From assembly GCA_965215185.1 (NCBI GenBank), contig OZ244034.1, positions 3,008,001-3,072,000 on the forward strand: a stretch of 64,000 nucleotides of DNA, in the 5' to 3' direction. The notes below the pieces were generated by a model. The model ran no database searches, had not been told where the DNA came from, and saw only the letters and a program-made list of their open reading frames with translations. Below are positions 2,753 through 8,089 of the stretch, piece after piece; position 1 is the first letter of the stretch, and each line of letters opens with the position of its first letter. The position numbers were made by a program, and so were the translations under genes. This DNA is from Acidimicrobiia bacterium (GTDB taxonomy: Bacteria > Actinomycetota > Acidimicrobiia > Spongiisociales > ZC4RG35).

Positions 2753-4206
2753 CCCAGGTTCAAGGGGTCGTTGCAACACTGCCTTGTTTGAGGGAGTGTA
2801 GGTATTCGTTGAGGGCCTCGGCTGGAGTCCTCCAGCCGAGGGTTTTGCGGGGTCGGCTGTTGAGTGCTGCAGCGACAGCGTCGAGGTCGTTGCGTGAGTG
2901 TCTGTGGAGGTCGGTGCCTTTGGGGAAGTATTGGCGGAGCAGACCGTTGGTGTTCTCGTTGGTTCCACGCTGCCATGGACTCTGCGGGTCGCAGAAGTAG
3001 ATGTCGAGGTTGGCCTCTGTGCGGAGTTGAGCATGCTGAGCCATTTCGACTCCTTGGTCCCAGGTCAACGACTTCCGGAGCTGTTGGGGCAGGGTGATGA
3101 TCGACGCAGCGATAGCGTCTCGTACGGCTTGGGCGCCATGGCCGGCGAGAGGGGGCCCGTTGTGGACCCGTTGCTGTTTTCGGTGGCCTGGCATGGGTGG
3201 GAGATGCAACAGCATCGTGAACCGGGTGGTGCGCTCAACCAGCGTCCCGATCGCGGAACTCCGAAGTCCCAGGATCAGGTCACCTTCCCAGTGTCCTGGC
3301 ACTGCCCGGTCGTCGGCCTCGGCGGGGCGTTGGCTGATCATGATCTCGGGGCTGACGAAGGTGCGGCGCCGCTGCCGGGTCCGTGCCCGCGGGACCCGCA
3401 AAGCTCGCCCGGTTCGCAGACACGCCACAAGCTCCCGTTTTAGCGCGCCTCGGCCTTGCACATAGGCCGCCTGGTAGATCGCCTCGTGAGAGATCCTCAT
3501 GGACTCATTATCAGGGAAATCGATCCGGAGCCGCCTCGAGATCTGCTCAGGACTCCACGACGTTGCCCACCGCCGATCAGCTCGCCTTCCGTGACGGCGA
3601 CCCGCCCAGCGCACCTGGGGCCCTGGCACCAGCTCACCATCCGGGCGGGCGATCTGACCACCCAAACGATCCTGCACATACTCACGAAGCTCGTCGTTGG
3701 CGGCCAGCTTCGCGACCTTCGGGCGGCTGGCACGCCGCTCCGCGTGCCACTGCGCTGTCGTTGCCCGATAAACCACACCACGACTACGAGTTGCGGCGTT
3801 GCGCCGCAACTCCCGCGAAATCGTCGACGCGCAACGACCAAGGCGACGACCGATCTCCCGCACCCCCACACCCTGCGCACAGAAGATAGCGATCTCTTCC
3901 CGTTCGGTAAACGACAGATAACGGCCCGACACCGAACCCAGAGAGATCGGCGGCATCCCACCAGCCTGGCGGAACCATCTAGACCCAACCGCCGGTGACA
4001 CCCCCGCCCCGGCAGCAGCGTCCTCGCTCGAGACACCCCCAGCGATCGCTTCCCAGAACCGGACCCGATCCTCACGCCGCGCTTTCGACGGCCGACCAGG
4101 CGACCACAACTGACCCCGCATCACACGAACCGCCTCCCGACGCTTCACAACACTCACCGCAAACCTCCTTCATCACCAAGTGTTGCGACCACCAATTGAA
4201 TCCGCC
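2753..4206 (-). mobile_element. IS30-family insertion sequence
   Basis: 27-bp imperfect IRs CCCAGGTTCAAGGGGTCGTTGCAACAC and GGCGGATTCAATTGGTGGTCGCAACAC around a full transposase. Confidence 0.92.
2760..4157 (-). CDS. IS30-family transposase
   Basis: STISRELRRN HTH; GHWEGD, TWDQG, SPWQRGTNENTNGLLRQYFPKG; GGAGG RBS. Confidence 0.95.
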   Translation of the reverse strand: MSVVKRREAVRVMRGQLWSPGRPSKARREDRVRFWEAIAGGVSSEDAAAGAGVSPAVGSRWFRQAGGMPPISLGSVSGRYLSFTEREEIAIFCAQGVGVREIGRRLGRCASTISRELRRNAATRSRGVVYRATTAQWHAERRASRPKVAKLAANDELREYVQDRLGGQIARPDGELVPGPQVRWAGRRHGRRADRRWATSWSPEQISRRLRIDFPDNESMRISHEAIYQAAYVQGRGALKRELVACLRTGRALRVPRARTRQRRRTFVSPEIMISQRPAEADDRAVPGHWEGDLILGLRSSAIGTLVERTTRFTMLLHLPPMPGHRKQQRVHNGPPLAGHGAQAVRDAIAASIITLPQQLRKSLTWDQGVEMAQHAQLRTEANLDIYFCDPQSPWQRGTNENTNGLLRQYFPKGTDLHRHSRNDLDAVAAALNSRPRKTLGWRTPAEALNEYLHSLKQGSVATTP

Positions 4207-4542
4207 CAATATCTGTCCATTCGCTACACGAACCGGCTCACCGAAGCCGGCATCGAACCATCAGTCGGCTCGGTTGGGGATTCCTACGACAACGCCCTCG
4301 CCGAATCCGTCATCGGCCTATACAAGACAGAACTCATCCACAAACGCGCTCCGTGGAAGGACCTCGACCAAGTCGAGTACGCCACCCTCGAATACGTCGA
4401 CTGGTTCAACCACCGCCGGCTCCTCGAACCCATCGGAGACATCCCACCAGCAGAGAAGGAGGCCAACTACCATCGTGAGCAGAACCGAGTCCAGCTAGCT
4501 GGACTCAAGTAAAACACTCTCCGGGAAACCCGGTACGGTTCA
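4207..4542 (+). mobile_element. IS3-family right arm, copy 2 (inverted relative to copy 1)
   Basis: Same 336-bp segment as 2417-2752, about 13 mostly synonymous differences counted by eye. Confidence 0.9.
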
Positions 4543-4712
4543 CATCTCGAAGGTAACCAACGGACCCACCGAAGCCCTCAACAACCTCATAAAGCGGATC
4601 AAACGCATCGCGTTCGGGTTACCCAACTTCGCGAACTACCGAATCCGCGCCCTTCTCTACGCCGGGAAACCCAACTGGGACCTATTGGCCACCGTCACTC
4701 CCCACTGAAATC
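4543..4712 (+). pseudogene. ISL3-family transposase C-terminal fragment; its IR continues at 6192-6199
   Basis: TNGPTEALNNLIKRIKRIAFGLPNFANYRIRALLYAGKPNW; end CTGAAATC...GATGAGCC split by IS110. Confidence 0.85.
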
Positions 4713-4727
4713 CACTCATACTTAGAA

Positions 4728-4905
4728 GGTTCCTGGGCTGGGACGGGTCTGACCCAACTGAAATCTGGCCTTGTGCCTTTTCATCGATCTGTCGGCCTGT
4801 TCCCGGCCTGGGGCGTAACCCCCTGACCCGGGGCGGATGTGACCTTATAGGAGCTTTGATCTTCCTCCACCGTGAGTGGCCTGTCCACCGCTTGCCGGGT
4901 CCGGG
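4728..4905 (+). ncRNA. Predicted IS110 bridge RNA (boundaries approximate)
   Basis: Two stem-enclosed loops carrying ACTGAAATC/TCATCGAT (match target flanks) and ATAGGAGC/TGAGTGG (match element ends). Confidence 0.75.
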
Positions 4906-4944
4906 GATCGGAAATGATTCTATCCCGCAGAGGAGGAAGGTGTC

Positions 4945-6175
4945 ATGGGAGAAGATGGTCGGGTTGTGTTCGGTGGGGTTGATACCCATCGTGATACCCA
5001 TGTTGCGGCGGTGGTTGATGGCGCCGGTCGGGTCCTGGGAACGGCACCGTTCGGGGCTGATCCGGTCGGATATGAGCAGATGACCAGGTGGTTCGGAACC
5101 CACGGGCACCTGCTCCGGGTAGGAGTGGAGGGCACCGGCAGCTACGGCGCCGGCCTAGCCCGCTATCTGATGGCGGCGGGCATCGAGGTGGTAGAAGTGA
5201 ACCGGCCGAACCGGCAGTTACGCCGCCAGAGGGGCGGCAAGACCGACAGTGTCGACGCCGAGGCGGCAGCTCGGGCAGCGGCCTCGGGGCAAGCTACCGC
5301 AGTTCCCAAATCTGGTGACGGCCCGGTTGAGTGCATACGGATGTTGTTGGTGGCCCGCCGCTCGGCTACCAAGGCCCGCACCCAGGCCGCTAACCAGATC
5401 CATTCTGTGGCCGTTACCGCACCTGAACAGGTAAAACGCCAGCTCAGAGGTCTCAAGCTCAAGGCCCGGGTTCGGGTCTGTGCCCGCTGGCGTCCCGGCC
5501 AAGCACAGACCACTGCGGCGTACGCGAAGATGGCTCTACGCTACCTGGCCCGCCGATACCAAGCCCTCGACACAGAAATCGCAGAACTCAAGATCGAGAT
5601 CCGTCGCCTCTGCGCCGAGGCTAACCCGGCTCTGTTAGCCGCCAAAGGTGTGGGCCCTGACACCGCTGCCGCCCTGCTAGTCGCAGCCGGCGACAACCCC
5701 CAGCGGATGAAATCGGAACGGTCCTTCGCGGCGCTGTGTGGCGCCAGCCCCGTCCAGGCATCATCGGGACAGACCATCCGGCATCGTCTCAACCGGGGAG
5801 GTAACCGCCAAGCCAACAACGCGCTCTGGCCGATGCGCTACCACCCGGATACGCCACGACGCAGCCACCAACCAATACGTGGCACGGCGCCAGGGGGAAG
5901 GAAAGAACCGAAAAGAGATCATCCGCTGCCTCAAGCGGCACATCGCCCCACAGGTCTACCGACTGCTGACCAACCCGCCACCAACCCCGAACTGCGCCCG
6001 GCTCCGCCGCCGACGTCAACACGCCAACATCACCGTCACCCAGGCCGCCCAACAGCTCGGAACCCACCCCAGCCGCATCTCAGCACTCGAACGCGGCCGA
6101 GACCACAACCACCAACTCGCCAGCCGATACCAGACCTGGCTCCTAACCCACGAACCGGCCCCATCACCGACTTGA
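4945..6175 (+). pseudogene. IS110 recombinase with C-terminal XRE-like HTH; +1 frameshift near 5830
   Basis: GVDTH, VEGTGSYG, KTDSVDA and ASSG motifs intact; ANNALW continues as RCATTRI...RCLKR in the 5738..6175 frame. Confidence 0.88.
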
Positions 6176-6321
6176 CAACCATAGGAGCATCGATGAGCCG
6201 GTTTAGGGGGGGTGCTCTGCCCCGGGAGATCCGCATCCTCGAAGAACTCGGCATGATCAACCCCCAACCCGCCCCCCTAACCAGCGGGAAGTCCGACGCT
6301 TCTACCAAGCAGACCACACCC

Positions 6322-6465
6322 TGAGGTTGACCCGCTTCGGTGGACGCTCTAAGACTTGGGATTGTTCCCAGATAGGAGTGTTCAGAGAATGCCGAAGACG
6401 AGACGGCCGTATCCGGCGGAGTTCCGAGCGGAGATGGTTCGCGTGGTCAGGGCGGCTCGTAGCCC
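6322..6465 (+). mobile_element. IS3-family left end and truncated OrfA
   Basis: TGAGGTTGACCCGCTTCGGTGGAC end, then MPKTRRPYPAEFRAEMVRVVRAARSP from 6389. Confidence 0.75.
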
Positions 6466-6752
6466 TTTCCGAAGGACCGGGATAGGTGCCACACGCTTAC
6501 GTTGCCGATGTGGCGACCAGGCACTTCGGTACGGCGGACCGAGAAGTCGTACACTCGGGCCTCGCGCCAGGACTGCATGCTCCGTTCGACGAAGCTGGCT
6601 GCCCGGGCTCTGGTATAGGGGGCGGTCGCCCAAGGTAGGAACCGGGCCAGTTCGGTCTTGGAAGCGTTGACGGCCCGGTAAAGGGCGTCGATGTCCTGTC
6701 TCCTGAAGGGGCGTAGTACGGACCGTTCCGTGTGGCGGTCGATGGGCGGCAG
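6466..6752 (-). pseudogene. Truncated RimJ/RimL-type GNAT acetyltransferase
   Basis: TERSVLRPFRRQDIDALYRAVNASKTELARFLPWA...HIGNVSV; C-terminus replaced by IS3 remnant. Confidence 0.7.
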
Positions 6753-7180: not shown

Positions 7181-8089
7181 TTGTACACGGTCACCGGAGC
7201 CACGGGCTATACCGGCCGGTACATAGCCGCTCTGCTCCTCGACCAGGGACACGCCGTCCAGTCCATCACCGGACACCCTGACCGCCCCAACCCTCTCGGT
7301 GACCGGGTGCCGCTGTTGCCGTTCAACTTCGAGCGGCCCGACCTGTTGGAGCGGACATTGCGTGGCACCGACACGCTGTTCAACACCTACTGGATACGGT
7401 TCGCTCGTGGCGACCGCACCTTCGGGCGATGTGTCGAGGAAACACGGACTCTATTCCGGGCTGCCAAGGCTGCAGGTGTGCGCCGCGTGGTGCATGTCAG
7501 CATCACGAACCCGGACCATCAGTCGTCGCTGCCCTACTTCGCCGGGAAGGCCGAGGTCGAGGATGCGCTGCGTGCCTCTGGCCTCTCGTACGCGATAGTG
7601 CGACCGACGGTGCTGTACTCCACTGAGGACGTGCTGCTGAACAACATCGCCTGGTGTCTCCGCAGGTTTCCGTTCTTTCTCCTTCCCGGGTCGGGGACCT
7701 ACGGCATCCAGCCCGTATTCGTGGAGGACCTGGCCGCATTGGCGGTCGCGGCGGCTTGCGACGACCGGAACACCGAGATCGACGCGGTGGGCCCCGACGT
7801 GTTCGAGTTTGGCGGGATGGTGCGGCTGATCCGGGACAAGCTCCCTACCCGGTGTCTGGTGCTGCCGGCGCCCAAGCTGGTGACCTACGCAGCTGCCCGG
7901 GTCCTGGGTGTGTTCCTCCGGGATACCGTCCTCACCCGGCACGAGATTGCAGGGCTGTGCTCTGGGCTGATGGTCTCTCGCGCGGACACGCTGCCTCCGG
8001 CGCCGACGCGGCTCGCTGACTGGCTGGACCGATACGGATCAGAGCTCGGAGTGACCTACGCTTCCGAGTTCCGGCGGCATTACCGCTAG
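7181..8089 (+). CDS. NAD(P)H-binding atypical SDR (epimerase/NDUFA9-like)
   Basis: VTGATGYTG, YFAGK, IVRPT, QPVFVEDLA; AAGGAGG RBS. Confidence 0.88.
   Translation: MYTVTGATGYTGRYIAALLLDQGHAVQSITGHPDRPNPLGDRVPLLPFNFERPDLLERTLRGTDTLFNTYWIRFARGDRTFGRCVEETRTLFRAAKAAGVRRVVHVSITNPDHQSSLPYFAGKAEVEDALRASGLSYAIVRPTVLYSTEDVLLNNIAWCLRRFPFFLLPGSGTYGIQPVFVEDLAALAVAAACDDRNTEIDAVGPDVFEFGGMVRLIRDKLPTRCLVLPAPKLVTYAAARVLGVFLRDTVLTRHEIAGLCSGLMVSRADTLPPAPTRLADWLDRYGSELGVTYASEFRRHYR

Follow-up and report, generated by a model that had tools for sequence, protein, structure and literature searches.

The window analysed here, a stretch of 64,000 nucleotides from an Acidimicrobiia bacterium (assembly GCA_965215185.1, contig OZ244034.1, forward-strand positions 3,008,001 to 3,072,000), contains at positions 4714-6191 an insertion sequence of the IS110 family, IS110 group. 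The left end of this element very probably encodes an IS621-type bridge RNA, and its working cycle would, by homology, follow that of IS621. The anatomy of the element, conserved RNA stems, covariation between the target loop and the flanking DNA, and repeated insertion at one site were all observed. We refer to the window copy as W and to its paralogous copies by their labels (c3102, c979, c1098, L049 and so on). W consists of a non-coding left end of 231 nt that starts with ACTCAT (4714-4944; all features of W described below lie on the plus strand), a recombinase gene, and a right end that extends 14 nt past the stop codon (6176-6189), the final letters of which, ATAGGAGCA, form the left donor half-site. 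The genome holds 12 copies of the left end and 13 further sites that resemble the right end. The ends of W (ACTCAT... and ...GGAGCA) are not inverted repeats, and long subterminal inverted repeats were not seen in W either. An ISL3-family element hosts the insertion, which lies inside the final 15 bases of its right terminal repeat, 8 bases from the tip of that repeat, and overlaps the ISL3 stop codon.

The four internal matches that led the initial annotation to propose a bridge RNA were all read directly in the sequence. ACTGAAATC is present in the left flank at 4704-4712 and again inside W at 4757-4765; TCATCGAT (4781-4788) is the reverse complement of ATCGATGA (6189-6196); ATAGGAGC occurs both at 4847-4854 and in the right end at 6181-6188; and TGAGTGG (4873-4879) is the reverse complement of CCACTCA (4712-4718). 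Taken singly, the matches are short (7-9 nt) and, in a region rich in GC and in repeats, could suggest chance similarity. We resampled 4725-4944 with a first-order Markov model 5,000 times; a match of the observed length or longer was found 35 times for the left junction, 68 times for the right junction, 14 times for the right end and 291 times for the left end, the weakest of the four. No resampling (0 of 5,000) contained all four matches together, and the same loop positions follow the flanks in other copies of the element. The resampling and the covariation between guides and flanks rule out a chance origin, whose probability we regard as negligible.

The predicted RNA, which may span roughly 4727-4904, places the four matches in two loops. 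The target loop is closed by a stem with strands at 4731-4753 and 4791-4813. It holds the left target guide (LTG), ACUGAAAUC plus U4766 (4757-4766), which has the top-strand sequence of the left target and would thus pair with the bottom strand, and the right target guide (RTG), UCAUC followed by a conserved GAU (4781-4788), in which 4781-4785 are complementary to GATGA at 6192-6196 and the GAU occupies 4786-4788. A small hairpin, GGC...GCC (4767-4777), lies between the two strands of the target loop. The donor loop is closed by a stem with strands at 4823-4843 and 4883-4904 and holds the left donor guide (LDG), AUAGGAGC with the tail UUU (4847-4857), which matches the right end at 6181-6188 and is invariant in both left-end alignments, and the right donor guide (RDG), UGAGUG with G4879 (4873-4879), which is complementary to C-ACTCA at 4713-4718.

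Covariation of the loops with the flanks across homologous elements, which the initial annotation had named as a check, was strongly positive for the target loop. We scanned 201 genomes of the same family for the target-loop motif; a reversed-pattern control gave no hits. The motif was present in 10 genomes, 9 of 17 from the genus of W (its own genome counted) and 1 of 6 from another genus. Addition of 12 loci from two 'Candidatus Spongiisociaceae' metagenome-assembled genomes (MAGs; class Acidimicrobiia) brought the collection to 30 physical copies with a recognisable left end. Copies that had no ACTCAT-type left end 20-50 nt upstream of the motif, or that lay less than 60 nt from a contig end, were dropped before counting (among them four identical copies from genome G009, L046, L055, L061 and L065, as well as L044, L054 and L052), and copies that shared both the 40-nt left context and the guide were counted once. 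The copies counted came from the genome of W, 8 other genomes of the motif scan and one MAG, and yielded 24 distinct pairs of LTG and left junction with 19 different LTG sequences. The cognate match was at least 8 of 9 bases in 19 of the 24 pairs: 9/9 in 10 pairs, 8/9 in 9, 7/9 in 2, 6/9 in 2 and 3/9 in 1. The mean match was 7.96 for cognate pairs versus 4.04 over 496 non-cognate pairings, only 2 of which reached 8/9, and none of 20,000 permutations with one representative per guide reached the observed sum. The right guide followed the same trend on a smaller sample. Among 9 distinct cognate pairs the match was 5/5 in 4, 4/5 in 2, 3/5 in 2 and 2/5 in 1, compared to 5/5 in 3, 3/5 in 5 and 2/5 or less in 48 of 56 non-cognate pairings.

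A second check concerned whether other copies insert at unrelated sequences. The identical target loop was found at the same site at least nine more times in another genome. In the MAG OZ253564.1, a protein 99-100% identical to that of c3102 is encoded at 9 loci with a W-type loop, and all 9 loci adjoin an ISL3 end (8 with ACTGAAATC and 1 with ACTGAGATC). At the 8 loci with a right end, that end is followed by GATGAGCC (7 loci) or GAAGAGCC (1 locus), and past GAGCC by eight different sequences. Because the downstream DNA differs at each locus, these are independent insertions at one 15-base site; they tolerate one mismatch on either side.

Consensus folding was performed on 9 left-end copies and then on 12, and pair counts were taken on the 12-copy alignment. 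The 39 consensus pairs were 95.2% paired in the 12 diverged copies, compared to 38-57% when the partners were slid by 1-3 columns. Six pairs had changed on both sides, and G-U pairs were tolerated. No shuffle (0 of 500) reached the observed pairing or covariation score, a test that related sequences can pass without structure. The helix that closes the target loop (20 pairs, 95.4% paired) contributed 3 of the pairs changed on both sides, the two helices that close the donor loop (16 pairs in all, 90.9% and 96.3% paired) together contributed the other 3, and the small hairpin within the target loop (4767-4769 with 4775-4777) was 100% paired at its 3 pairs. The long stem of the initial annotation, 4733-4753 with 4791-4811, was recovered in the single-sequence fold, and the consensus helix lengthened it slightly to 4731-4753 with 4791-4813. 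The second stem-loop, said to hold both donor matches, corresponds to the consensus stem 4823-4843 with 4883-4904. The target guides form the two strands of an internal loop of the first stem, and the donor guides lie inside the loop of the second. The linker between the two loops, folded alone, gave no consistent hairpin. The conserved stems, together with the covariation of guides and flanks, bear out the view of the non-coding left end as a bridge RNA with two loops. The target-loop domain (4731-4813) is identical in W and c3102 at 82 of 83 positions (98.8%), compared to 79.4% for the open reading frame (ORF); either the RNA domain is under strong constraint or it was recently converted.

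The target site and the boundaries of W needed correction. The initial annotation gave the target as ACTGAAA-TC-GATGA, which is one C short: unfilled sites read ACTGAAAT-CC-GATGA, and a search of the W genome for ACTGAAA-TC-GATGA found no match. Two unfilled ISL3 ends in that genome read CCACTGAAATCCGATGAGCC and CCACTGATATCCGATGAGCC, i.e. ACTGA[A/T]ATCCGATGAGCC with the extra C, and the c1098 site has two unfilled relatives with the sequence TATGAA[A/G]CCCGGCAC. Since the unfilled W and c1098 sites explain the filled ones only in this way, W starts at ACTCAT (4714), ends with ...GGAGCA (6189) and is bordered by a two-base core. The same sites rule out a start at CACTCAT combined with the target ACTGAAA-TC-GATGA. 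The left repeat of the ISL3 element was also considered as a second target and was rejected, as the guides do not match its sequence. The left target half-site is ACTGAAATCC (4704-4713), of which 4704-4712 equal the LTG and 4712-4713 are the left core; the right core occupies 6190-6191, as judged from the listing of right ends and the unfilled sites; and the right target half-site, GATGA followed by GCC (6192-6199), makes up the final 8 bases of the right terminal repeat of the ISL3 element. The DNA past GAGCC varies in every copy. The natural target site of a W-type loop is ACTGAAATCCGATGA. As an independent observation, loose ends of RNA-library contigs contained ...ATCC joined to GAAGAGCC, which is another unfilled ISL3 end.

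The earlier claim of a TC/ATC core held for the right junction only. The right core is TC and is derived from the donor; the left core is CC and is derived from the target, so that only the second C is common to both. In all copies the second core base is C at both junctions; the first is C or A at the left junction and T at the right. For IS621, the second core base is likewise described as nearly invariant and the first as less conserved (PMC11208158). The register of the LTG match differed among copies. It ends at the crossover C in c979, c1097, L039, L045, L056 and L067, and one base before the crossover C in W, c1098, L051 and L064, where an extra C precedes the element. The second register is directly supported by the unfilled sites for W and c1098. 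The U that follows the 9-base match (U4766 in W) could form a wobble pair with the G opposite the core C.

The donor guides are complementary to the joined ends of the element over 8 nt and 6-7 nt, and both guides and ends are invariant in all copies. The initial annotation had noted that these guides match only up to the core. They do stop there, and this is no anomaly, as it fits the handshake-guide rule of IS621. In IS621, the bases next to the RTG and RDG are reported to pair with the non-cognate top strand after exchange, pairing of these bases with the cognate strand blocks exchange (PMC11208158), and the same dinucleotides modulate excision (PMC13626964). In W the GAU at 4786-4788, invariant in all motif-bearing copies, can pair with the A-T-C of the right junction: G4786 pairs with the core C, and AU 4787-4788 match the A-T of the donor, not the T-C of the target. 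Similarly, G4879 pairs with the target-derived C4712, the first core base, and not with the T of the donor. The base 3' of the RDG corresponds to the first core base of the target in 15 of 18 elements and to the donor T in none of the 18, and the next base beyond the handshake position matches in 11 of 18. From this pattern we take AU 4787-4788 and G4879 to be handshake guides. Where the UUU tail of the LDG (CUU in other copies) faces the A-T-C of the donor, the first position is a mismatch, the second a match and the third a possible U-G wobble.

Expression of the RNA would depend on the excised circle. A -35-like TTGACA at 6172-6177 overlaps the stop codon, and a -10-like CATACT is present at 4717-4722; joining of the right end to the left end would bring them together with a 17-nt spacer and thus complete a putative promoter at the circle junction. 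Of 16 complete copies, 14 have TTGACA, 17 nt and CATA[C/A]T across the joined ends. Reconstitution of a promoter upon excision has been published (PMC11208160) and agrees with this arrangement, and such a junction promoter would drive the bridge RNA. A terminator scan found none after the donor loop. RNA-library contigs were available from four runs, three of them metatranscriptomes of one study and one a guessed RNA run of another. They cover 4650-4919 in all four runs; two contigs, from the two studies, end at 4896. Contigs from both studies cover 4705-4896, and parts of the ORF are uncovered. The sole sigma-70-like site in 4500-6300 lies on the minus strand at 4946-4917 (ATGACA, 18 nt, TAGAAT; 10 of 12 positions) and points across the ribosome-binding site toward the donor loop.

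The recombinase gene of W is split between two frames. A ribosome-binding-like GGAGGAAG (4931-4938) precedes the first frame (4945-5834), which contains the DEDD RuvC-like domain and most of the Tnp domain (Transposase_20), including a serine that aligns with the catalytic serine of IS621. Pfam matches in 4945-5835 were PF01548 (DEDD_Tnp_IS110) at 5.6e-25 and PF02371 (Transposase_20) at 9.4e-16. At 5835 there is one extra base relative to the intact paralogue, the sole ORF indel in the alignment of W and c3102, and the frame shifts after about residue 296, which puts the last part of the Tnp domain out of frame. The second frame (5836-6175, stop codon TGA at 6173-6175) supplies the remainder of the Tnp domain and, at about 5996-6103, a C-terminal helix-turn-helix (HTH_31 at 2.9e-8, in an HTH_31/HTH_3 match). 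The paralogue c3102, at genome position 3,102,724 and about 90 kb from W, is 81% identical to W and carries the same guides. Its ORF is uninterrupted and encodes a protein of 409 residues (P0001, L002:1732-2958), which scored 210.3 bits (cutoff 140) over residues 10-343 against NF033542, 'IS110 family RNA-guided transposase', and matched PF01548 at 1.2e-23. P0001 aligned to IS621 (8wt6, E 9.5e-12) and to ISCro4 (9t56, E 2.5e-10); its D, E, D and D positions are in register with those of IS621, and the serine of ...QASSG... aligns with that of ...RYESG....

The C-terminal part of the protein, residues ~346-409 of P0001, extends past the end of IS621 and includes an XRE-type helix-turn-helix (HTH_31/HTH_3; residues 351-386 of P0001, 5996-6103 in the window). 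Many of 120 listed homologues of ~409 residues carry the same Pfam match, and a 73-residue tail recurs in IS110 family transposases on 14 plasmid records from Arthrobacter, Paenarthrobacter, Streptomyces, Rhodococcus and Mycolicibacterium. A limited literature search of titles and abstracts found no description of a helix-turn-helix tail on IS110 recombinases. The tail might allow autoregulation of the junction promoter or provide an extra contact with DNA.

In part, then, the view of W as a natural RNA-programmed recombinase stands: the family assignment and the guide logic agree with it, and the gene of W itself is frameshifted near 5835. W is probably a relic; at best, the intact paralogue, whose guides are the same, could move it in trans. 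An assembly error or a bypass of the frameshift would instead leave W autonomous and active, and in its favor both frames are otherwise open and conserved, the RNA domain and both ends are intact, and the target-loop domain is nearly identical to that of the intact paralogue. We consider this unlikely: the extra base lies outside a homopolymer run (GATGCGC versus GAT-CGC), intact 409-residue relatives lack it, W is single in its genome at 100% identity, and the RNA-library contigs that overlap 5784-5837 represent unrelated, conserved pieces instead of W.

Several observations, the frameshift among them, weigh against the bridge-RNA interpretation. The fold of 4713-4944 only partly agreed with the expectation that the matches would lie in loops. 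Consensus folding places the guides between helices, and the single-sequence fold pairs parts of three of them: UGAAA (4759-4763) pairs with UUUCA (4779-4783), UAGG (4848-4851) pairs with 4721-4724, and the RDG falls in an 8-bp hairpin. The single-sequence fold is not unusually stable (z = -1.57, with 10 of 200 shuffles as good), and the consensus fold permits two small local hairpins that touch the LDG and RDG. The guides thus sit in loops of a conserved architecture, and their single-strandedness in the free RNA is not guaranteed. A search of 4300-6600 against Rfam 15, with E values up to 1, gave no matches. The promoter scan found no plus-strand promoter-like site in the integrated left end; the RNA-library assemblies may contain DNA and their contig ends may be branch points, and transcription is neither shown nor excluded by them. 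Since the donor guides and the ends are invariant, covariation carries no information on their complementarity here. The LTG also pairs in two registers, one base apart relative to the crossover. Finally, some copies match poorly: the LTGs of c1005 and L060 at only 6/9, the right guides of c2398 and c1097 at 3/5, and L049 (G014:C10:2331125-2334173), which lies in an ISL3 end with a c979-type target loop, at 3/9 on the left and 2/5 on the right. In 100-nt windows, the body of L049 shares 88-98% identity with c1005, and c979 is the copy nearest to its first 100 nt; the loop was possibly exchanged after insertion, or insertion was possibly guided in trans by the RNA of another paralogue.

Some of these points would suit a different explanation, in which the matches are sites for protein binding or for pairing at the DNA level (subterminal repeats or homologies for DNA-DNA alignment) and not RNA guides. 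The integrated left end has no promoter-like site of its own on the plus strand, the RNA contigs do not establish a transcript, and the matches to the ends of the element itself do not vary, a pattern also expected of sites bound by a protein. We consider this very unlikely. In 19 guide classes, the two target matches change together with the DNA that flanks the element, which a fixed protein site would not do. In each loop, the two strands read opposite strands of the DNA; they lie between helices of RNA type, with G-U pairs and compensatory changes, and the protein is an equivalog-level member of a family for which the RNA mechanism has been shown biochemically and structurally. We therefore retain the bridge RNA as the preferred reading.

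The genome of W (3.12 Mb, one contig) contains 34 matches to W. A hidden Markov model of the left end found 8 full and 4 interrupted left ends and one remote resemblance. Because the genome copies are only 70-81% identical to W, they are old paralogues. Their ends are conserved, with (C)ACTCATA... on the left and TTGACAA..ATAGGAGC on the right, and ATC follows in 13 of 14 right-end-like sites. The remote resemblance, to the target loop, is at C1:255,824-255,910 (nhmmer E 2.3e-6), with the loop AATTGAAATC one base off the W guide; no recognisable donor loop or recombinase gene was seen within the 240 nt viewed there. Insertions are nested at C1:1,095,841-1,098,933 (L004, L007), where c1097 lies in the right end of c1098 (TTGACAAA|C) and the c1097/c1098 pair lies reversed inside the left end of a third paralogue, c1095. 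The guides of c1097, c2341 and c909 read the right end of sibling elements, and c979 and c374 are inserted in the Transposase_20 region of another IS110-type gene.

The host of W is an ISL3-family transposase gene, the 3' end of which (4544-4708) comprises the last 54 codons and the stop codon TGA at 4706-4708. Its 54 residues (4544-4705) are identical at 49 positions (91%) to the C-terminus of the intact transposase of L072 in the same genome, which matches PF01610 (DDE_Tnp_ISL3) at 1e-57 and also carries the ISL3 zinc ribbon and helix-turn-helix. The terminal inverted repeat of L072 is imperfect (GGCTCTTCGG.../...CCGATGAGCC), with the right tip ...ACTGAAATCCGATGAGCC. Broken insertion sequences are stacked to the left of W (2760-4713): an IS30-like gene with HTH_38 and rve domains on the minus strand (2760-4157), a C-terminal rve_3 fragment (4180-4512) and the ISL3 stump. 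The stack is bounded by a DctP-type solute-binding gene (1019-2095) and an NAD-binding gene (7181-8089). Directly 3' of the ISL3 tip is TAGGGGGGGTGCTCT (6204-6218); similar strings (GTAGGGGGTGCTCT) adjoin or split several other IS110 copies, and strings of this type are probably the end of yet another repeated element.

Transcription, the circle, its promoter and the chemistry of the cycle are modelled here on IS621. The element would excise as a circle, in which the joined right and left ends would build the promoter described above. This promoter would transcribe a bridge RNA of ~170-180 nt, with the recombinase gene behind it. The first loop of the RNA would read the target and the second would read the circle junction, and a tetramer of the DEDD/serine recombinase would swap strands at the two-base core, of which only the second base (C) would have to be shared. 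The handshake stretches, AU 4787-4788 and G4879, fit the products and not the substrates and may thus favor strand exchange.

The paralogues may, as a tentative suggestion, form a guild with one donor code and at least 19 target programs, in which any RNA could steer any circle, partly in trans. Such combinatorial targeting would be possible because the ends and the donor loop are invariant and because, in IS621, each loop in a synaptic complex belongs to a different RNA molecule (PMC11208158). Three observations would fit a guild: L049 combines a c1005-like body with a c979-like loop at a site that only a W-type loop matches, the frameshifted W keeps a target-loop domain almost the same as that of an intact paralogue, and the preferred targets are ends or genes of other insertion sequences. 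If true, the two-register left guide with a U-G wobble over the core C and the C-terminal XRE-type helix-turn-helix, which is absent from IS621, would both be new mechanistic details. One genus offers a legible natural series here, a radiation of related bridge-RNA elements with a shared donor code and many target codes, and with unfilled sites in the same genomes the target rules, core tolerance, handshake positions and half-site spacing can be read from natural insertions. The intact 409-residue paralogue is a candidate bridge recombinase from a high-GC actinobacterium with an extra DNA-binding domain, and insertion into the tips of other insertion sequences suggests that RNA guidance is used to reach safe, repeated sites.

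The mechanism itself is not new. Bridge-RNA systems were described in 2024, when such RNAs were predicted in 85.7% of catalogued IS110 elements (PMC11208160), and the NCBI family is already named RNA-guided. Like IS621 (Durrant et al. 2024, PMC11208160; Hiraizumi et al. 2024, PMC11208158; 8wt6), the W-type elements combine a DEDD RuvC-like domain with a Tnp domain that carries a catalytic serine. The layout of the IS621 bridge RNA, with a target-binding loop and a donor-binding loop (PMC11208160), recurs in a long left end that would encode an RNA of ~175 nt. Also shared with IS621 are ~9 + 5 programmable target bases, a two-base core with an invariant second base, handshake guides beside the RTG and RDG, and a -35 box in the right end with a -10 box in the left end.

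There are clear differences from IS621. IS621 has the core CT, and the W-type core is xC, with TC in the donor and either CC or AC in targets. The protein has 409 residues compared to 326, with ~64 extra residues that include the XRE-type helix-turn-helix, and the sequence similarity is remote (E 9.5e-12). Unlike that of IS621, the left guide occurs in two registers one base apart, and the left donor guide of W extends to the core only by way of one mismatch, one match and one possible U-G wobble. The host belongs to a sponge-associated lineage of acidimicrobial bacteria, and most targets lie in the ends or genes of other insertion sequences. The ISCro4 / IS622-type bridge recombinases, reportedly close relatives of IS621 from enterobacteria that are used for genome engineering, belong to the same family. 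They share the two-domain catalytic core with the W-type protein (9t56, E 2.5e-10), and the aligned ISCro4 chain (341 residues) lacks the C-terminal helix-turn-helix. The IS1111 group, with its seekRNA or bridge RNA encoded in the right end (PMC11208160), has a recombinase of the same family and the same two-loop logic; in contrast, the RNA of W lies on the left-end side (231 nt on the left, 14 nt on the right). The plasmid genes annotated 'IS110 family transposase' in the 14 actinobacterial records share the helix-turn-helix tail of 65-70 residues at 35-49% identity and are distant relatives of the W-type recombinase.

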